Below, one piece after another: positions 28,136 to 54,079 of a DNA stretch of 64,000 nucleotides (positions are counted from its first letter, which is position 1; every line of letters begins with the position of its first letter). The stretch is from Anaerolineae bacterium (GTDB taxonomy: Bacteria > Chloroflexota > Anaerolineae > B4-G1 > SLSP01), in assembly GCA_035420085.1 (NCBI GenBank), contig DAOLUH010000022.1:7930-71929 (forward strand). Reading direction: 5' to 3'. The position numbers were made by a program, and so were the translations under genes. A model generated the notes under the pieces. The model saw nothing but the letters and a program-made list of their open reading frames with translations. It searched no databases and was not told the origin of the DNA.

Positions 28136-29545
28136 GTGTTGATGAAAAAGTTATTGTTTGTTGGTCTTGTACTTCTGTTGATCGTCACATCCCTCACCGG
28201 CTGCGAGACGCCCACCATCGCCCCCACCCCCACGCCGACGCGCACGCCGGTTCTCCCCACCCCCACACCGACGCACACCCCCACCCCCACACCGACCGCC
28301 ACCCCCTCTATCACCCCCAGCCCCACGCCAACGCTGCCGCCGGGACTGCTCTTGCCGCCGCAGCCAGCGGAGTTGCCGGGCTGGCCGGCGTTGCCTGTTG
28401 ATCTCTACTTTATGCGCGATGGGAAAATCTGGTCGTGGTTGGCGGAAGGCGGCGCAGTGGAAAGTGTGCCAGTTGCGGTGGAAGGGGAGACCGTGCTCAC
28501 CTACCAGATAACGCAGGACGAACGCTACGTGCTGTATGTGACCGACGCTGGCAAACTGTACGTTTTCGACCGCGCCCAGTGGCAGCACACGCACATCCCC
28601 ACCGCGGGCCGGTTGATTGACGACCGGGGCATTTATTTCGACGTGACGCCGGACACACGTTACCTGGTCTACCTGGCATGGGGCATCCAACCAACAGCCG
28701 AGATGACCACCAATAACACGCTCATCGGGACTATCCTGACAATCGAATTGCCCAAACTGCGGCAGGCACAGCGAACATTGGGGTTTTGCGGCAGCGACGG
28801 CGATGCTGGCTGTATGGGCGTCCACCTCGCGCCAGATGGCAACCTTGTCGCCTACGAAGATGGCGCAGGGTTGTGGCTGACCGCGCTCGACAGCCCCGAA
28901 CCCCGCCTGGCACTGCCTTCCTCCAGCACACCGCCCTGGCGATTCAAGGCCTGGTCGCCCAACAGCCGTTGGTTAATCCTGGAAGTGCAATCGGCGGAAG
29001 GGACGCTCATAGGACTGCTCAATGTAGCAACAGGACAAATCACCCCCATCGGCGACGTGGCCTGTGTGGAAGGCTGCGACATCGGGCTGAGTTGGGGAAC
29101 GCAAAGCCTGTGGCTGTTTACCGATACGCCACAGCAGGGCTGCCTCTTCCAGATACAGCCAGCCTTCGGCGATACGCCAATGAGTATGCCTTACGAGATG
29201 TGTGCGCTAGGTGAGTGGGCACTGCACCCCGCGTCTCCGTTGGCGCTGCCCGACGGGTGGGTCGCGTTCGTGCATCGCGGCTGCGGCGAGGGTTGCCCCG
29301 GCCCGGCGCCTGGCCTCTACTTCCTGGGTCCCGACGAAGCCGCGCATCCCATCGCCTTGCTTGACCGCAACGACGGTTCCGCCCTGTGGGCGCCCGACGG
29401 TTCGGCCTTCCTCTACTTCGACGCGGAGAATCGCCCCTATCGCCTGGGTGTGACCGGCGGCGCAGGTTTCTGGGATGTGAGCCGCGCCCTCGCAGGCGCA
29501 CACACATTCCACTGGGGTACACGCCTTGAGTCGCCGGAACAGTGA
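28136..29545 (+). CDS. Lipoprotein with PT-rich linker and PD40-like beta-propeller repeats
   Basis: MKKLLFVGLVLLLIVTSLTGC lipobox (the ATG at 28142 is likely the true start). LAPDGNLVAYE, WSPNSRWLILE and WAPDGSAFLYF. Confidence 0.65.
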   Translation: MLMKKLLFVGLVLLLIVTSLTGCETPTIAPTPTPTRTPVLPTPTPTHTPTPTPTATPSITPSPTPTLPPGLLLPPQPAELPGWPALPVDLYFMRDGKIWSWLAEGGAVESVPVAVEGETVLTYQITQDERYVLYVTDAGKLYVFDRAQWQHTHIPTAGRLIDDRGIYFDVTPDTRYLVYLAWGIQPTAEMTTNNTLIGTILTIELPKLRQAQRTLGFCGSDGDAGCMGVHLAPDGNLVAYEDGAGLWLTALDSPEPRLALPSSSTPPWRFKAWSPNSRWLILEVQSAEGTLIGLLNVATGQITPIGDVACVEGCDIGLSWGTQSLWLFTDTPQQGCLFQIQPAFGDTPMSMPYEMCALGEWALHPASPLALPDGWVAFVHRGCGEGCPGPAPGLYFLGPDEAAHPIALLDRNDGSALWAPDGSAFLYFDAENRPYRLGVTGGAGFWDVSRALAGAHTFHWGTRLESPEQ

Positions 29546-47120: not shown

Positions 47121-48026
47121 TTGTTCCCAAGGAAACCCAATTTGTCTATTCACTACGGCACCCATTGTTACCTGTTTACCGACAGTTGGTCAAACGACCG
47201 GCTGCCCATTTTGGACACGGCCAAAGCGGTCGGGCTGGACGTGTTCGAGGTCGTCGTCGGCGACGACGTGACGTACACACCGCGCCTCACTCGGCAACGC
47301 GCGGAAAGCCTGGGACTGACGCTCACCGTCAGTCCTGGCGGCGCATGGCCGGTGGCGTGCGACCTTTCCGCCGACGATCCAGCGGACCGCGCGCGGGGAC
47401 TGGCGTGGCACCAGCGCCAGGTCGATATCGCCGCCGAACTCGGTGCGGTGGCTTACACCGGCGCGCTCTACGGCCATCCGGGGACGGTACTCCGCCGTCT
47501 CCCGCCCGCCGACGAATTCCCGCGCACTGCTGAGGGTCTGCGCGCGCTGGCCGAATACGGCGCGCAGCGCAATGTCGCCATCGTCATCGAACCGATGAGC
47601 CACTTCCGCACGCATCTGGTCAACACGCCGGAGCAAGCAATGCGCCTCATCGCGCTGGCTGACCATCCCAACCTGCGCGTGCTGCTCGATACCTACCACC
47701 TCATCACCGAAATCCGTGACTATGCGAAAGCGATCCATACTGTCGCGCCGAGACTGTGGGGCCTGCACGCTTGCGAGAGCGACCGGGGCGTGCCCGGCGG
47801 CGGTCTCGTGCCGTGGGATGCGGTCTTTGCCGCGCTCAAGGCCATCGCTTTCGAGGGCTACGTACTGCTGGAGACTTACAACTCGTCCATCGGTGATCCG
47901 CCCGGCGCGTTCGCTGTCCAACGAGGGATGTTTCACGATCCGTGCCCGGATGGGGAGGCGTTCGTGCGGCAAGGAATCGCATTTTTGAAGGCGGGGATGA
48001 GCAATAAAAACCCTTGCGAAGGTTAG
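47121..48026 (+). CDS. Sugar phosphate isomerase/epimerase (xylose-isomerase-like TIM barrel; ketose 3-epimerase-like)
   Basis: IEPMSHFRTHLVNTPEQAM..LLDTYHL, CESDRGVPGGG. The start is uncertain (TTG at 47121 or TTG at 47142 after AAGGA). Confidence 0.75.
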   Translation: MFPRKPNLSIHYGTHCYLFTDSWSNDRLPILDTAKAVGLDVFEVVVGDDVTYTPRLTRQRAESLGLTLTVSPGGAWPVACDLSADDPADRARGLAWHQRQVDIAAELGAVAYTGALYGHPGTVLRRLPPADEFPRTAEGLRALAEYGAQRNVAIVIEPMSHFRTHLVNTPEQAMRLIALADHPNLRVLLDTYHLITEIRDYAKAIHTVAPRLWGLHACESDRGVPGGGLVPWDAVFAALKAIAFEGYVLLETYNSSIGDPPGAFAVQRGMFHDPCPDGEAFVRQGIAFLKAGMSNKNPCEG

Positions 48027-48042
48027 GAAACCTTCGCAAGGG
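48011..48042 (+). terminator. Perfect 14-bp hairpin CCCTTGCGAAGGTT-AGGA-AACCTTCGCAAGGG. The left arm encodes the last five codons and the stop spans the arm/loop junction.
   Basis: Read directly. Related copies at 57458-57482 and 61188-61235. Confidence 0.6.
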
Positions 48043-48055
48043 TGGCGATATTCGT

Positions 48056-48083
48056 TTGACGTTTGCCGGATTCTGCCTATCAT
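48056..48083 (+). promoter_or_regulatory. Candidate promoter TTGACG, 16 nt, TATCAT upstream of the defence islet; the -35 lies in a CGTTTGA heptamer pair
   Basis: -35 at 48056-48061 and -10 at 48078-48083. The ATG at 48127 is preceded by GAGGAAAGAGG. Confidence 0.3.
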
Positions 48084-48126: not shown

Positions 48127-48495
48127 ATGGCTGAAACCCGCGCACTCCAGAATGTTCAACAAATAGAGACATTAGTCAGCATCATTGCCCAAACGGCTGA
48201 TCCAGAACAAGTGATCCTGTTTGGTTCACAGGCCAGCGGTGCTGCACACGCAGATAGCGATTATGACTTTATGGTCGTCATGCGCGACGTAGAAAACGAG
48301 CGGCTGATTTCACGCCGCATCTACCACGCTTTGCTAGAACGGCACATTGGCGTTGCGGTAGATATTATCGTGGTCGATGCCGAAAAACTCACCAAGCGCC
48401 GGTATACTCCGGGCCTGATCTACCGGCGCGCACTGCAAGAAGGCAAGGTATGCTATGACCGAACAACCTGGCGATTATTTCCCGGTCAGCGATGA
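48127..48495 (+). CDS. MNT-type nucleotidyltransferase (antitoxin-like component of HEPN/MNT modules)
   Basis: ILFGSQASGAAHADSDYDFMVV (GSxxxG..DxD). About 122 aa from MAETRAL. Confidence 0.75.
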   Translation: MAETRALQNVQQIETLVSIIAQTADPEQVILFGSQASGAAHADSDYDFMVVMRDVENERLISRRIYHALLERHIGVAVDIIVVDAEKLTKRRYTPGLIYRRALQEGKVCYDRTTWRLFPGQR

Positions 48496-48568
48496 AGAGT
48501 ATGAACGAGCGGTTGAGTTGGCTGCGCGCGCGGTCGAGTGGGTGGCAGCACAGCTCACAATGAAATAA
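48455..48568 (+). pseudogene. 37-codon ORF overlapping the NTase 3' end; possible remnant of the cognate HEPN gene (C-terminal helix only)
   Basis: MTEQPGDYFPVSDEEYERAVELAARAVEWVAAQLTMK. It sits where a HEPN gene would be, but is far too short and has no Rx4-6H motif. Confidence 0.2.
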
Positions 48569-48608: not shown

Positions 48609-50168
48609 ATGAACGTAGTTTACACAAGTCTGCTCGAACAGTTCAGCAAGGCCAAAACCTATCCCATTCCAGTTGATATGCAGCAAGTTTTTGCACCGGC
48701 CAGTCGCTGTCTTCTGGAATGGGAAGATTACTGGGTTGAGATACCTGAGGCAGATACACTCCGTGTTGGTACAATGTGGTATACCCCGAAATTGGGACAT
48801 TACTTCAATGTGTGCTTTGAGAACCAGCTAGGGTTGACCGAAATCCAACCTTATGCAAGAGGTTATGCGCTTTGTCCCCCGCTGCACGTTGAAGTCATAT
48901 CCCCAAAATTCGCCACCACTGCGTTACACTTGAATTTTTACCAGGGTTTGCTAGAAGACCTCTTTATTCGCGCGACTCGGCTGCCCTTCACGATTCAAGC
49001 GGAAACCCAGCGCGGCGTGACCGAATCCTTACGCCCGCCCACGCCGCTCTTTATGCTGCACTTTCTCTGTCAGTACGCGATGCAACTGCGAGATGCCCTC
49101 GCGTTGATACAGTTTGCCCCTCACCGTAACCTGATCGAATTTGCCGAGCGAGTCCCGTTAGCGATGGCGGTGGAAGCGGACGCCGACGTGCTGTTAAGCA
49201 TTGTCGCCGCGACGGAAGAATGGCAACCCACAGAACAACGTCTACCGCTAGTATCCAGGTTACAAGGACACGCCCCCGCGCACGTCTGGCAACGACGTTC
49301 CGAAGAGACCTGCAATACACCGGAAAACCGTTTCGTGCTGCATTTCCTGCGCCAGTTACTTGTCGCGGCAGAGAGTCTACCACGCCAACTCTGGTGGAAA
49401 AACGTTCCACCCAAGCGCCAGCGGCTCGTACTCGAAAGCATCAGTCTGGTGCGCCAAACTATCGAACATCCTATGTTCGACGAAGTCGAAGCCATGCACA
49501 TCCTGCCCTTAACGTCACAGGTATTGCTGCGGCGCGATGGCTACCGCGAGATGCTGGAACTATGGCAGCAATTCCAGCGCGCGCGTCGCCCGCTCTTCGG
49601 CGCATTGGCCCATGCTATCGAAGTGCGCGATGTGGCAACGCTTTACGAGATATGGGCCTTCTTCGCCCTGATCGAAGAGATTGCCGTGATTGTCAAAGAA
49701 TCACCCACAGTAGCTATAACGATTTCAACCGAGCAAGGCGTAGAATACGGCGCAAAGGCGCACTTTGGCCGCGCCGGCGCGTTGGTGTACAATCGCGGAT
49801 TCAGTTACCCCACTTCCTATTCCGTACCCTTGCGCCCTGATTTCACCTGGATGCGCGATGGCAAACCCGAGGTGGTGCTGGACGCCAAGTTCCGTCTGGA
49901 ACACTTACCGGGGGCCGATGAAGAGGACATAGAAGTGACAACAACGCCAGGAGCTACCGCCAAGCGCGCTGATTTATACAAGATGCATACCTACCGGGAT
50001 GCGTTGGGCGTGCGGAGCGCAATAGCGGTTTATCCTGGTGATCAGACCGTGTTTTACGGCTATCAACGCAGGCATATAACCAATATGATGCTACCTGAGA
50101 TTTTTCTAGAGAATCTTCCCGGTATCGGTGCCTTGCCGATGAGACCCAGTGATAGTGGAGGTAGATAA
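48609..50168 (+). CDS. McrC-like PD-(D/E)xK nuclease with DUF2357-type N-terminal region
   Basis: NTPENRFVLHFLRQL. RPDFTW..VVLDAKFR..ADLYKMHTYRDAL at the C-terminus. Lies 4 nt upstream of the McrB-like gene. Confidence 0.75.
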   Translation: MNVVYTSLLEQFSKAKTYPIPVDMQQVFAPASRCLLEWEDYWVEIPEADTLRVGTMWYTPKLGHYFNVCFENQLGLTEIQPYARGYALCPPLHVEVISPKFATTALHLNFYQGLLEDLFIRATRLPFTIQAETQRGVTESLRPPTPLFMLHFLCQYAMQLRDALALIQFAPHRNLIEFAERVPLAMAVEADADVLLSIVAATEEWQPTEQRLPLVSRLQGHAPAHVWQRRSEETCNTPENRFVLHFLRQLLVAAESLPRQLWWKNVPPKRQRLVLESISLVRQTIEHPMFDEVEAMHILPLTSQVLLRRDGYREMLELWQQFQRARRPLFGALAHAIEVRDVATLYEIWAFFALIEEIAVIVKESPTVAITISTEQGVEYGAKAHFGRAGALVYNRGFSYPTSYSVPLRPDFTWMRDGKPEVVLDAKFRLEHLPGADEEDIEVTTTPGATAKRADLYKMHTYRDALGVRSAIAVYPGDQTVFYGYQRRHITNMMLPEIFLENLPGIGALPMRPSDSGGR

Positions 50169-50172
50169 GATT

Positions 50173-52962
50173 ATGGATCAGCAACGTTTACAGGAATTGG
50201 TGACACTCTTTTATCAAGAGATGCAGAATTCAACCCTACTGCAAGACCATATCGAAGATCATCGCAGGCGCAGTGAGCGCGTACACAGACTGCTGACCAC
50301 ACAGTATATCCCACAACTAACTGAAGATGAGTTGCGTGAGTTATTCTTCGATTCCGATGCCTTCGGCTTTTGGGGAAACAAAGAATGGGAGTTCAATGAC
50401 CGACTTCAGAAAACAGGTCTGGAAGAGATGCACAATATCCTCCTGGAACTTATTACGCGAGCGGAACAAGGATTAAAACCTGAGGATTTGCGCGCTATAT
50501 GGGAGATGAAAGGCCTGGGCACTTTGCTCTCCACTGAATTTTTGGCCTATCGCTATCCTGACCGCTATTGGACATATTCTGCCAATGTAACACTGAGCGC
50601 CCTGCAAAAACTCGGTGACAATGTACGTGATCAAATGCCGCGCGGACAAAAGTCCGATGCCTACCTGTATTTCGCCCTAGAATCGCGGCTTGCAGAAATA
50701 CGATCAGCTCTGCAAAATGTGGGGTTGCCGAATGTAGACAATTTGGTAGCAGATATCTTTTTATGGTGGGTTAACAAAAAAGAAAAGATGCCACCACTCC
50801 CAACAAATGAAACCTCTGAAAACATAGGAAACCAATCAGCAACTAACTTACCCACATCCCCACATCAGATATGGCTTTTCCAAGCAAACCCGAAGTATTT
50901 TGACTTAGTTGCTGCTCTATCCAAAGCAAAACCTGGGGAGATAGTAGATTGGACGGTAACAACCCACCGAGACGAAATGCAAGCTGGTGATATCGTGGTA
51001 CTTTGGCAAAGTGGTAGTCAAGGTGGCATTTGTGGTATCGCCGAATTGATCGATGAGCCTTACCAAAGAAAATCAACACCGAATGAGACAGAACTAAAAG
51101 AAAAACCATATCGTAAAGCAGATTGGTGGGTAGACCTTCGCATACTAACGACTCTTGCTACGCCGATTTCTAGATCTGAAGCTAAAGCAAATCCAGTATT
51201 ACAAAACCTGGGGGTTTTAAAATTCTCTCAGGGAACCAATTACCCGGTTCTACCCGAGGAATGGCAAGAAATTCGTCGGCTAATACAACAGAAATCCGCG
51301 CCTGTAGATACCGACAATGAAAAACAACTCATTGAGGCATTATTGCCTGATCCCCAAACGCGGTTTTCACACTTGCAATTGTCACTAAACTTCGAATTAG
51401 CAGACGTGTTAACCAATCACATAGCTTGCGAGAACTTATATTTCACCCCCTGGCAAATCGCCACCTTCTACACCGCCCTGCAAACCAAAGGCTTCGTCAT
51501 CCTCAGCGGCATCAGCGGAACGGGCAAAACCAAACTGGCGCAAGCGTTTGCGGATGCGCTGCCGCAACCGACGCAACGTGAGATAGCACTCGCAGATGAC
51601 GTTATCGCCGTGACGGTACAGCCGTATATGCGCAAGTATGGACGCCTCATTATCCCCAAACAAGCCACCCGTCTTTTCGACCCTCCGCCGCCCGGCGAGT
51701 CACAAGATGTAACGCTCAGATTTGAAAATACCAGCCAGGTATGCCGGTTTGTCCATGCCAGCTACGCTAATACGGACTATCTTTCTTTGATGTTTCGGGG
51801 CAAAGCACGCCAATGGTTCGTCAACACATTTGCCGAGGGCGATACGGTTGTCTTACAGCCAGAACTCAACAAAGAAGATACACTGGCCGGTTTCCAAATA
51901 AGCACGCAGGAGATGTTGGCGGCGCAAACGCCGACCAAACCGACCGGCGACGGGCAACGCAACGTGTTATTCGTCCCCGTCCGCACCGATTGGCGCGACA
52001 GCAAGAGTTTGCTCGGCTACTACAACCCGCTCACCGGCACGTATGAATGGACGCCGTTCCTGCGCTTCCTACTGCGGGCTGTCCAGAGCTATCGTGTCAG
52101 GGATGGCCTTGCCTGGTTCGTGATCCTCGATGAGATGAACCTGGCGCGGGTGGAGTACTACTTCGCCGACCTGCTCAGTGTCCTCGAATCGGGGCGCACC
52201 GCTGAAGGATGGACACGCGAGCCGTTGCGCCTGAGTTATCCCGATACGGCGGTAGGCGACTTGCCGCCGAAAGAACTCCCACTCCCGCCCAACATTTATG
52301 TCATCGGCACGGTCAATGTGGACGAGACGACGCACGCCTTTAGCCCTAAAGTGCTCGACCGGGCTTTTACGTTGGAATTGACCGACGCGGATTTTTCACG
52401 TTATCCGGCGACTACACCGACGCCCTTAGCCGATCTCGACGACGCACAGCGCCAGGCATTACTGCAAGCCTTCACCAACAACGGATCTTTTGCGCGCATT
52501 GACAAAGCCGCGATTGCCGCGTACGTCGCAGGCCATCCCAACACGCGGGAGCACTTGCGCATGTTGAATGCGCTCCTGCACCCCTACGACATGCATTTTG
52601 GTTATCGCGTGTTCGACGAGATTATCGCCTTCTTGCTGAACGCGGAGCGCAATAGCCTGTACGACAACACATTGCCTGGCGACGATCCCGCCTTTGACGC
52701 GGCGGTGCTGATGAAAATCCTGCCCAAATTCCACGGTTCACGCGGCAAGCTGGAACAACCGCTCAAGCAAGTATTGGCCTGGTGTTTGGATCCAGATGCG
52801 CCTTCCGAGGAGACCATCACGGATACGTTCAAAGATTTGGAAACTGGCGGTGATGTCACCCAAACACTCGCCAACTTGAACTATCGCTATCCCCGCACGG
52901 CAACGCGTGTGCAGCGGATGTTATGGGCGCTCTACACATCCGGTTTTGCGGCATTTGGATAA
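50173..52962 (+). CDS. McrB-like AAA+ GTPase fused to an unknown N-terminal domain and an EVE (PUA-like) module, with a ~135-aa insertion after Walker A
   Basis: ATG at 50173 after GGAGG. EVE-like IWLFQANPKYFDL..GDIVVLWQSG..GICGIAEL. Walker A GISGTGKT (51508-51531). VLFVPVRTDW..LLGYYNP. Walker B FVILDEMNLA. NVDETTHAFSPKVLDRAF. Confidence 0.85.
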   Translation: MDQQRLQELVTLFYQEMQNSTLLQDHIEDHRRRSERVHRLLTTQYIPQLTEDELRELFFDSDAFGFWGNKEWEFNDRLQKTGLEEMHNILLELITRAEQGLKPEDLRAIWEMKGLGTLLSTEFLAYRYPDRYWTYSANVTLSALQKLGDNVRDQMPRGQKSDAYLYFALESRLAEIRSALQNVGLPNVDNLVADIFLWWVNKKEKMPPLPTNETSENIGNQSATNLPTSPHQIWLFQANPKYFDLVAALSKAKPGEIVDWTVTTHRDEMQAGDIVVLWQSGSQGGICGIAELIDEPYQRKSTPNETELKEKPYRKADWWVDLRILTTLATPISRSEAKANPVLQNLGVLKFSQGTNYPVLPEEWQEIRRLIQQKSAPVDTDNEKQLIEALLPDPQTRFSHLQLSLNFELADVLTNHIACENLYFTPWQIATFYTALQTKGFVILSGISGTGKTKLAQAFADALPQPTQREIALADDVIAVTVQPYMRKYGRLIIPKQATRLFDPPPPGESQDVTLRFENTSQVCRFVHASYANTDYLSLMFRGKARQWFVNTFAEGDTVVLQPELNKEDTLAGFQISTQEMLAAQTPTKPTGDGQRNVLFVPVRTDWRDSKSLLGYYNPLTGTYEWTPFLRFLLRAVQSYRVRDGLAWFVILDEMNLARVEYYFADLLSVLESGRTAEGWTREPLRLSYPDTAVGDLPPKELPLPPNIYVIGTVNVDETTHAFSPKVLDRAFTLELTDADFSRYPATTPTPLADLDDAQRQALLQAFTNNGSFARIDKAAIAAYVAGHPNTREHLRMLNALLHPYDMHFGYRVFDEIIAFLLNAERNSLYDNTLPGDDPAFDAAVLMKILPKFHGSRGKLEQPLKQVLAWCLDPDAPSEETITDTFKDLETGGDVTQTLANLNYRYPRTATRVQRMLWALYTSGFAAFG

Positions 52963-52987: not shown

Positions 52988-54079
52988 ATGGACTCTCCGT
53001 CTTTACGCGACAAATTCTTCGGCTGCATCGCCGGCGTGCACATCGGCTCGGCGATGGCGGCGCCGGTGGAGGGCTGGCCTTATGAGCGCATCGAGGCCGA
53101 GTACGGCACGCTGGACCGCTTCTTGCCCTACCATCACTACCGCGCCACCACCGATTGGGTGCGCGAGCCGGGCACGACGGAGGACGGCGTGGAACGGCAG
53201 AAGCTCATCATCACGGCCATCATACGCAAGCAGGACCGCATCACGGCGGAAGACTTGCGCGCCGTGTGGGTGACGGATATGAACCCCAACGGCGCCGGCG
53301 TCGTCTCCGAGCCGTTCGAGGGGCCGCTGTTGGCGATGGCGAAGACGCCCATCCCCGCGCGCGACCTGGGCCGCTATTGCGACTACGCCGGGCTGGTCTC
53401 GTTCGCCCGCTCGTGCCATCCCGTGGGACTGATCAATGCAGGCGACGTGGAAGGCGCGCTGGAGGACATTCTGGAGGTCGGGCAGGTCTACCAGACCGCC
53501 AACAGCCGGGGCTTGCAGTGGGCCGCCGTCACCGGCGTCGCCATCGCCGCCGCGACCAAACCAGAGGCGACGGTGGATAGCGTGCTCGGCACGGTCTTCG
53601 ATGTTTGCGGGACGTTCCAGGCGCGCGTGGGTCAGGATGCCGGCGTCGTCCGCGAGCTTGACCGCGCGCTCAAGCTCACCGCCACCTGCCAGGACTTCCG
53701 TGAGCTGCGCGCGGCCTTCGACCCCCTCTACAGCGGGACGGGTATCCCCTACGCGCAGAGCTACGCCAATGAGGTTGTCACGAAAGCGGTGTGCATCTTC
53801 CGCATGGTCAAGGGCAATCTGCGCGAGGCGATTGTGGCGGGCGTCAATATGGGGCGCGATACCGACTGTATGAGCGCCGTCGCCGCCGGGATTTCCGGCG
53901 CGCTCACTGGCAACGCGGGCCTGCCGGAGGCGTGGGTACAGCAGGTGGATTACGCCACAAGCGTCAACCCGTACACTAACTCGCAGCGCACCCTGCGCGA
54001 GCACGCGGATGGCCTCTACGAAGCATTCCAGGCGCGCGTGAAGAAGCTCCGTGCCTTTACCCAAACAATGGATTACTGA
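52988..54079 (+). CDS. ADP-ribosylglycohydrolase family protein
   Basis: AAGGAG RBS. FFGCIAGVHIGSAMAAPVEGW and GVNMGRDTDCMSAVAAGISGALTG. 363 aa. Confidence 0.8.
   Translation: MDSPSLRDKFFGCIAGVHIGSAMAAPVEGWPYERIEAEYGTLDRFLPYHHYRATTDWVREPGTTEDGVERQKLIITAIIRKQDRITAEDLRAVWVTDMNPNGAGVVSEPFEGPLLAMAKTPIPARDLGRYCDYAGLVSFARSCHPVGLINAGDVEGALEDILEVGQVYQTANSRGLQWAAVTGVAIAAATKPEATVDSVLGTVFDVCGTFQARVGQDAGVVRELDRALKLTATCQDFRELRAAFDPLYSGTGIPYAQSYANEVVTKAVCIFRMVKGNLREAIVAGVNMGRDTDCMSAVAAGISGALTGNAGLPEAWVQQVDYATSVNPYTNSQRTLREHADGLYEAFQARVKKLRAFTQTMDY

Follow-up and report, generated by a model that had tools for sequence, protein, structure and literature searches.

Gene Organization of the Locus

A 64,000-nt stretch of the genome of an Anaerolineae bacterium (contig DAOLUH010000022.1, positions 7,930 to 71,929 of the forward strand; assembly GCA_035420085.1), referred to below as the window, contains a restriction module related to McrBC. 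The module consists of two genes on the plus strand. The upstream gene (48609-50168) encodes a 519-aa homolog of the nuclease McrC, and the downstream gene (50173-52962) encodes a 929-aa homolog of the motor protein McrB. The spacer between them is only 4 nt, and the TAA stop codon at 50166-50168 and the ATG start codon at 50173, which were read in the initial annotation of the locus, are borne out by the open reading frames (ORFs). It is likely that the two genes constitute a self-contained McrBC-family DNA restriction system, which is modification-dependent (Type IV) and has several sensor domains on its motor protein.

The assignment to the McrBC family, drawn from sequence comparison, is indicated by four Pfam models, by matches in PDB, and by the conserved residues of the nuclease. 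In the profile search that the initial annotation had proposed, DUF2357, PDDEXK_7, EVE, and AAA_5 all scored above their cut-offs, while the Pfam McrBC model stayed below its cut-off for the McrC homolog (15.3 versus 23.9). Entries identical to both proteins, from an Anaerolineae metagenome-assembled genome, are present at NCBI as HOU13692.1 (DUF2357 domain-containing protein) and HOU13693.1 (EVE domain-containing protein).

The start codon ATG at 50173 is favored over GTG at 50149 by the N-termini of homologs (MDxxRLxxL...). The Shine-Dalgarno sequence GGAGG of the McrB-like gene falls within the 3' end of the McrC-like gene, and this placement is consistent with translational coupling. The features of the module are listed in Table 1.

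Table 1. Features of the McrBC-like module; positions are those of the window.
Feature	Position	Strand	Evidence
McrC-like nuclease gene	48609..50168	+	ORF, Pfam DUF2357 and PDDEXK_7
DUF2357 (McrC N-terminal, McrB-interacting) region, residues 107-319	48927..49565	+	Pfam, E 7.6e-26
PD-(D/E)xK nuclease domain, residues 344-478	49638..50042	+	Pfam PDDEXK_7, E 4e-11
GGAGG Shine-Dalgarno sequence for the McrB-like gene	50157..50161	+	Sequence read; 11 nt before ATG
McrB-like AAA+ NTPase gene	50173..52962	+	ORF, Pfam EVE and AAA_5, PDB McrB matches, PADLOC PDC-M26A
N-terminal all-helical domain, residues 1-205	50173..50787	+	AlphaFold2, Foldseek, profile versus PDB
EVE (PUA-like) modified-base reader domain, residues 233-369	50869..51279	+	Pfam, E 3.8e-16; PDB 2gbs, E 7e-6
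Walker A GISGTGKT, residues 446-453	51508..51531	+	Motif
B3-like DNA-binding pseudobarrel (predicted), residues 478-585	51604..51927	+	AlphaFold2 model, Foldseek
Rest of AAA+ core and lid	51961..52959	+	Motifs, PDB McrB matches
Walker B FVILDEMN, residue 649	52117-52140	+	Motif
Signature NVDE, residue 715	52315-52326	+	Motif

The McrC-like Nuclease

The upstream protein had been proposed to be a McrC/DUF2357-type nuclease, and the Pfam matches agree with this. It contains both the DUF2357 region and a C-terminal PD-(D/E)xK domain with the catalytic D...D/ExK residues, the combination that characterizes McrC. The core residues of the nuclease are D411 and D425-A-K427. In the alignment of 22 McrC homologs, RPD (409-411), LDAK (424-427), KMHxYRD, and the TPEN residues of the NTPEN motif (residues 236-240, within the DUF2357 region) are conserved at 95% or more. 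To judge from these residues, the active site is intact and the nuclease looks functional. The first 106 aa showed no match in Pfam.

The McrB-like Motor and Its Signature Motif

The downstream protein had been described as having a McrB-type AAA+ core, and the motifs of this core lie at the positions originally given. Both Walker motifs (A and B) and an AAA_5-type domain (E 7e-7, 29.8 bits against a cut-off of 22), expected of a McrB core, are all present, and LDRAF is seen at residue 728. A sequence search of PDB matched, besides the EVE protein 2gbs, the McrB structure 6ut3 (E 2e-4), and the best matches include the McrB proteins of Thermococcus gammatolerans and Escherichia coli; the similarity to solved McrB structures covers only about 85 residues. 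With Walker A, Walker B, the sensor-1 Asn in NVDE, and LDRAF in place, the motor looks functional. Among PADLOC models, the candidate model PDC-M26A matches it in three stretches (E 1.9e-46). A literature search for "PDC-M26" found no paper.

The canonical McrB signature NxxD is replaced by N-V-D-E. GT[VI]NxDE is present in 119 of the 120 closest protein clusters (90% identity), which agrees with a strictly conserved NxD that is usually followed by E or D. A major McrB branch is defined by NxD, usually with E as the next residue, and no GTPase of this branch has been characterized (PMC11090510). Thus, the NVDE motif places the McrB homolog in the NxD(E) branch. In an ungapped alignment to T. 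gammatolerans McrB, the Glu of NVDE sits on the Asp of NTAD, and therefore the motif could equally be read as NxxE.

A B3-like Pseudobarrel Inserted in the AAA+ Core

A large insertion inside the AAA+ core had been noticed in the initial annotation, and the comparison with relatives supports it. The distance from Walker A to the strand DWRDSK is about 158 aa here. It is about 155-180 aa in around 100 of the 120 closest clusters and only 33-53 aa in 12 relatives that lack the insert. This split in length indicates a discrete insertion of about 125 aa after the helix following the P-loop. The insert lies between this helix and the next core strand (NVLFVPVR).

Based on 37 homologs, AlphaFold2 modeled the insert with a mean predicted local distance difference test (pLDDT) score of 87, and about 96 over the core. 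A Foldseek search of PDB with this model, one of the checks suggested at the outset, returned B3 domains as all of the top 10 matches, with probabilities of 0.97-1.0 and target-normalized template modeling (TM) scores of 0.48-0.69. The plant proteins VAL1 (6fas, E 5.6e-4), FUS3, LEC2, VRN1, and TEM1 come first (E up to 4.6e-3, probability 1.0), followed by the N-terminal domain of LlaJI.R1 from Helicobacter pylori (6c5d, probability 0.97). The structure is that of the seven-stranded DNA-binding pseudobarrel seen in plant B3 proteins, EcoRII-N, and LlaJI.R1-N. At the sequence level, the Pfam B3 model gives E 0.036 (14.4 bits against a cut-off of 30.1), and a plant B3 chain in PDB matches weakly over residues 480-566. 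The insert is, as far as the predicted structure tells, a B3-like DNA-binding pseudobarrel. B3 domains of restriction enzymes are known from LlaJI.R1, EcoRII, and BfiI (PMC7680126, PMC3973309), and LlaJI.R1 is a McrB-family motor with an N-terminal B3 domain (PMC7680126).

At the same site of the AAA+ core, different inserts unrelated to B3 are present in a few relatives, including P0014, P0119, and a homolog from Thermococcus barophilus plasmid pTBMP1 (L036, 2894-5770). The alternative insert is about 160-175 aa long (e.g., ...YWWTYPIRDD...LYIYH...), and those of the T. barophilus homolog and P0014 showed no match in Pfam. The presence of unrelated inserts at one site indicates an insertion hot spot, in line with Bell et al. 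2024 (PMC11090510), who remark that the GTPase domains of McrB proteins frequently hold inserts "likely encoding specificity domains".

The EVE Domain

The EVE/PUA-like module that had been proposed upstream of the AAA+ core is confirmed by Pfam (PF01878, 59.8 bits against a cut-off of 23); its 3' end had been placed at 51190, about 90 nt short of the end of the Pfam-supported domain. EVE domains serve as sensors of modified cytosine (PMC7897488, PMC6765204), as in VcaM4I (PMC7897488), and fusions of EVE to McrB were reported by Bell et al. 2020 (PMC7641849). The module shares with these EVE-McrB fusions and with EVE-HNH enzymes such as VcaM4I the use of EVE as the modification sensor of a restriction system, and differs from them in its extra sensors, in the clade of its motor, and in its reversed gene order. 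In one relative (P0016), an extra domain lies between the N-terminal domain and the motor (residues 216-369); it matches PADLOC PDC-S02 (E 1e-11) and, weakly, EVE (E 0.016). This type of extra domain, annotated as PF28530 in the flagged relatives, is probably a further PUA-like reader.

RNA readers, too, belong to the EVE superfamily (PMC7641849). Together with the NxD(E)-type motif, this would suit an RNA-targeting system akin to CoCoNuTs, which are McrBC systems of the NxD branch, with EVE reading modified RNA. The module shares with CoCoNuTs the NxD motif followed by Glu and a GTPase domain bearing an insert. However, neither Pfam nor the structure models reveal the coiled-coils, HEPN, cold shock domain, or helicase components, only two genes are conserved, and the nuclease is predicted to be active; thus, the module does not qualify as a CoCoNuT. 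The PD-(D/E)xK site is intact and conserved, and the B3 and HhH-GPD folds bind double-stranded DNA. An RNA target is highly improbable, and DNA restriction remains the preferred reading. The NxD systems other than CoCoNuTs were deferred to later work in the description of this branch (PMC11090510), and Bell et al. 2024 (PMC11090510) make no mention of B3 or glycosylase-like domains.

The N-terminal Domain and Its Predicted Ogg-like Fold

With HMMER at full sensitivity, the N-terminal domain recovered 102 clusters at E ≤ 1e-3 among 1.84 billion representative proteins. The family is real but rare, and is without a Pfam model of its own. The AlphaFold2 model, built on 58 diverse family members, consists of 13 helices (pLDDT 94.7, predicted TM score 0.88). 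In the Foldseek search of PDB, the best matches were the Ogg2-type 8-oxoguanine glycosylases MjOgg, SsOgg, and Tm1821 (probability 0.96-0.97, with a weak E of about 0.1), followed by Qng1/DUF2419, MutY, EndoIII, and MagIII, all of which belong to the HhH-GPD superfamily. The top match of the family profile against PDB was also an Ogg2 enzyme (9o01, E 0.06), and in the profile alignment, the GxG hairpin of the domain aligns with the helix-hairpin-helix (HhH) motif of Ogg2. The Pfam OGG model PF21790 matches 8 of 90 distant family members, and in P0179 the match covers the same region as the domain. Three agreeing lines, each of them weak, suggest an Ogg2/EndoIII-like HhH-GPD fold. With a second nucleic-acid-binding fold in the B3-like insert and the EVE domain between them, the initial description of the protein as a three-sensor McrB homolog is fair.

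In the alignment to Ogg2, L118 stands in place of the catalytic Lys, and the residue there is A, L, S, or G in the family as a whole. The catalytic Asp corresponds to S136 here, and to N or S in 49 of the 58 family members. Because both positions of the dyad are replaced, the domain is predicted to be a non-catalytic reader of modified bases of the iEndoIII type. In END nucleases, iEndoIII, an inactivated EndoIII/Ogg-like domain related to PF21790, was shown experimentally to set the targeting of phages with hypermodified DNA (preprint, PMC12191111). END-Mag, with an archaeal-Ogg-like version, specifically targets modified G, and fusions of iEndoIII to McrB-like GTPases were noted by the same authors (PMC12191111). 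The domain would share with END nucleases, in which an iEndoIII/Ogg-like domain is combined with phospholipase D (PLD) or PD-(D/E)xK, the HhH fold without catalytic residues and the relation to PF21790. Here, in contrast, the predicted sensor is on a multi-subunit motor driven by nucleoside triphosphate (NTP), alongside EVE and B3.

It is also conceivable that the domain is an active but non-canonical glycosylase/lyase, with the abasic site or nick licensing cleavage by McrBC. The fold belongs to a superfamily of glycosylases, Y166 is invariant in the family, and G116, E122, and P129 are found in at least 90% of its members and could form a pocket; defense glycosylases such as Brig1 and Brig3 do exist (PMC13160076). 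The family-wide replacement of Lys, the N or S at the Asp position in most members, and the report of related iEndoIII domains as catalytically inactive sensors (PMC12191111) make this quite improbable, and a sensor role of the domain is preferred.

The family is fused to motors with EVE and AAA_5 from other McrB lineages and to DUF2461, TIR, and RVT, and is also found in short proteins similar to restriction endonucleases (REases); these partners fit the role of a defense sensor. The short proteins of 350-400 aa (P0179, P0184, P0186, P0190, P0195, and others; L038 4001-5080 on a Monoglobus plasmid) combine the Ogg-like N-terminal domain with an REase-like C-terminal domain. D...ExK-type motifs are seen in the C-terminal part, and P0179 matches PADLOC REase_II (Type II REases) with E 2.9e-8; a profile of this C-terminal domain found no relative in PDB. 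These short proteins are probably single-chain END-type modification-dependent nucleases.

Distribution, Architecture, and Gene Order of Related Modules

When each segment of the protein was searched in the 120 closest clusters, the B3 insert was found in 103 of them (about 85%). All four parts, that is, the N-terminal domain, EVE, B3, and AAA+, are combined as here in 21 clusters. The N-terminal domain with B3 and AAA+ is seen in 13 clusters, EVE with B3 and AAA+ in another 13, and B3 with AAA+ only in 56, while 17 have no B3. Many relatives reach greater lengths, up to 1258 aa, with further domains, such as PF28530, between the N-terminal domain and EVE; some B3-only proteins seem complete at about 520 aa. 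From the short B3-only proteins and the varied N-termini, B3 seems to be the basal DNA-binding module, with the N-terminal readers as add-ons. The initial annotation considered the stacking of these domains on one GTPase as an unusual architecture. Within the clade, this is not supported, considering the 21 clusters with the full set and the 103 with B3; moreover, each sensor type is already known on McrB-type motors (PMC7641849, PMC12191111, PMC7680126).

A scan of GTDB species genomes yielded 35 related loci. They are mostly from Chloroflexota (Anaerolineae, Roseiflexaceae, Thermomicrobiales, and Sphaerobacteraceae), and those outside this phylum are from Deinococcus pimensis, Armatimonadota, WOR-3, and a few others. 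The distribution is patchy, crosses phyla, and includes plasmids. The two genes are adjacent and co-oriented, as in McrBC operons, in the order C then B, opposite to the usual order with B upstream. This nuclease-first order, already pointed out for the module in the initial annotation, is real and is furthermore a conserved trait of the clade: all 25 loci with upstream sequence and a recognizable McrC (whole or cut by the contig end) have the McrC homolog as the directly preceding gene on the same strand, and the same order is found on the archaeal plasmid pTBMP1 of T. barophilus. The McrC and McrB genes often overlap or abut, and McrC is fragmented in three further loci. The canonical B-then-C order is kept by a more distantly related EVE-McrB of the NVDE type, which is encoded on a Chlorohelix plasmid downstream of an N6 methylase. 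By its sequence features, the module belongs to a Chloroflexota-centered sub-clade of the NxD(E) branch, defined by the nuclease-first order and the AAA+ insert.

All-against-all clustering of the neighboring ORFs in the 35 loci revealed no third conserved gene and no recurrent methyltransferase. A simple motif screen of ORFs in the window found no DNA methyltransferase either. One ORF with PCQ and ENV motifs (28151-28825, minus strand) was considered as a C5-methyltransferase and rejected, being a spurious ORF that runs antisense within a real plus-strand gene. A Type IV system would cleave only modified DNA and have no cognate methyltransferase, and none was found linked to the module in the 35 loci or in the window.

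These observations bear on the possibility that the module is a sequence-specific enzyme similar to LlaJI, in which B3 reads an unmodified sequence, the methyltransferase is encoded elsewhere in the genome, and EVE and the Ogg-like domain are accessory or inhibitory. LlaJI.R1 (6c5d) also has a B3-like pseudobarrel on a McrB-type NTPase and is among the top structural matches of the insert, nearly half of the closest clusters are of the B3-only architecture, some of them seemingly complete, many McrB proteins of the NxD branch are linked to methyltransferases (Bell et al., PMC11090510), and the Chlorohelix EVE-McrB adjoins a methylase. However, the B3 domain of LlaJI is N-terminal and accompanied by two methyltransferases, whereas here it is inside the AAA+ core and none is linked, so that the LlaJI arrangement is not found. 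Two dedicated modified-base reader folds are present in the same protein, and the module is alone in a horizontally acquired islet, where a sequence-specific enzyme without a methylase would be lethal. A LlaJI-like specificity is improbable, and modification-dependent restriction is preferred.

In some related loci, McrB and/or McrC are fragmented (L026, L028, L032, L033, and L035), and McrC is cut down to a remnant in L001 and L008, which suggests frequent decay of the module. The fragmented loci would be in line with the module of the window being a non-working remnant, and oxidative damage, as the classical target of Ogg-like domains, would be in line with a housekeeping damage-response nuclease outside of defense. 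Yet both ORFs are complete and retain all motifs, the base composition is foreign, the distribution is patchy across phyla and includes plasmids, and the motor matches a candidate defense model of PADLOC. A decayed or non-defense function is very improbable, and the module is better regarded as an intact restriction system.

The Islet and Its Neighboring Genes

The module occupies a small islet of foreign composition. The guanine-cytosine (GC) content is 0.43-0.58 over about 48.0-52.0 kb, and about 0.61-0.69 in the flanks. The GC content also changes within the McrB-like gene, being 43-49% in 50173-51450 (N-terminal domain, EVE, and linker) and 51-62% in 51450-52960 (B3 and the C-terminal half of AAA+). 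This step is a hint of mosaic origin, and suggests that the N-terminal sensors were acquired from a different source of lower GC content. A search for repeats flanking the islet gave chance-level matches only, and a scan for promoters and terminators gave counts not above those of shuffled sequence. Where the GC content changes at the upstream edge of the islet, a perfect inverted repeat of 15 bp around a 4-nt loop (48010-48043) lies between a sugar-phosphate isomerase-like gene and a nucleotidyltransferase gene; in the minus-strand reading, it is flanked by an A-run and, opposite, a T-run. It looks like a bidirectional terminator. A promoter-like sequence, TTGACG-16-TATCAT, follows the repeat at 48056-48083.

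The nucleotidyltransferase gene just upstream of the module (48127-48495, plus strand) is similar to MntA (Pfam Polbeta, E 9e-11; NCBIfam MntA antitoxin, E 3.6e-10; PADLOC PDC-S09). At the position expected for its HEPN toxin, only an overlapping 37-aa ORF is present (48454-48567, plus strand; MTEQPGDYFPVSDEEYERAVELAARAVEWVAAQLTMK). No Pfam match was found in this ORF, which may be what is left of a deleted HEPN gene. The low-GC islet, the adjoining MntA-like gene, the occurrence on plasmids, and the decayed loci may be taken as signals of mobility and defense.

Downstream, an ADP-ribosylglycohydrolase gene (52988-54079, plus strand; Pfam E 2.7e-29) begins 25 nt past the stop codon of the McrB-like gene. 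An AAGGAG site of its own and the lack of an intervening terminator make co-transcription possible. The gene resembles the host in GC content (0.62-0.69) and does not recur beside the module in other loci; its association with the module is probably incidental. A role as a BapA-like partner was considered and rejected, since BapA is a different protein, in addition to the host-like GC content and the lack of conservation.

Proposed Function of the Module

By homology to the McrBC systems of E. coli and T. gammatolerans, the motor would assemble into an AAA+ ring and bind the nuclease through the DUF2357 finger of the latter. Foreign DNA would be recognized via up to three appended modules of the motor. 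The Ogg2/EndoIII-like HhH domain, predicted to be inactive, may sense hypermodified bases, especially modified G, as the counterpart domains in END nucleases do. The EVE domain may read 5-methylcytosine (5mC) or 5-hydroxymethylcytosine (5hmC)-type bases by base flipping, as in VcaM4I and related enzymes. The B3 domain would be the basal double-stranded-DNA anchor of the clade, since the shortest members have no other DNA-binding module. NTP hydrolysis would lead to translocation, and the PD-(D/E)xK site (D411, D425, and K427) would cut the DNA. No methyltransferase would be needed because the DNA of the host presumably lacks the marks. The N-terminal sensors may be swappable add-ons that extend the range of detected modifications, and both OR-type and AND-type inputs are conceivable.

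Several points weigh against this explanation. The NTP specificity, the translocation, and the nucleic-acid target are all extrapolated. The B3 domains of EcoRII-N, BfiI-C, and LlaJI.R1 read specific unmodified sequences, which fits Type II-like logic better than Type IV. EVE domains can bind modified RNA too. The scores of the Ogg-like domain are weak (Foldseek E about 0.1, TM 0.38-0.46, hidden Markov model (HMM) E 0.06), the PF21790 matches of family members that were checked individually are below the gathering score, and the apparent loss of the catalytic residues depends on the weak alignment to Ogg2. In the PADLOC search, also suggested in the initial annotation, a candidate model matched the motor, while the McrC homolog matched none of its models. 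Each of the four rival explanations, on the other hand, conflicts with at least one observation, and a modification-dependent DNA restriction system is the likely interpretation.

The motor could go further and be a broad-spectrum integrator of modifications, with the Ogg-like domain for hypermodified purines such as 7-deazaguanines, EVE for modified cytosines, and the ring-embedded B3 coupling DNA engagement mechanically to the NTPase cycle. This extension is tentative and rather unlikely. Recognition of a composite or novel nucleic-acid mark, as the initial annotation put forward, is speculation.

Comparison with Known Systems and Implications

The module shares with the GTP-dependent Type IV McrBC systems of E. 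coli and T. gammatolerans the two genes, the AAA+ domain with Walker A, Walker B, and the sensor-1 Asn, the partner with a DUF2357 finger and PD-(D/E)xK, and modular DNA readers fused to the motor. It differs from them in the order C-B, in NVDE instead of NxxD, and in three readers instead of one, one of which is inside the AAA+ core. All ingredients have precedent, the architecture recurs in metagenomes, and a PADLOC candidate model exists; the module is clearly less exceptional than was first held. In the literature searched, neither B3 as an insert within AAA+ nor its near-universality in the C-then-B clade was found, nor were the NxD(E) motif of this clade and a single motor that combines iEndoIII, EVE, and B3.

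As the pieces and the general logic are already known, the existing picture is refined, not overturned. The module is an intact and compact two-gene representative with a nuclease predicted to be active, and would thus be a good entry point to the uncharacterized NxD branch. If the embedded B3 domain acts as proposed, it would show how a DNA-binding domain inside the AAA+ core contributes to target engagement. If the motor is indeed an integrator, the arrangement would be one undescribed for any AAA+ restriction motor, and the clade would be the first tractable model for the NxD branch of McrB. Such enzymes are candidate tools for the detection of modified DNA. If the readers work as predicted, one restriction motor would cover several chemically different modifications of phage DNA.

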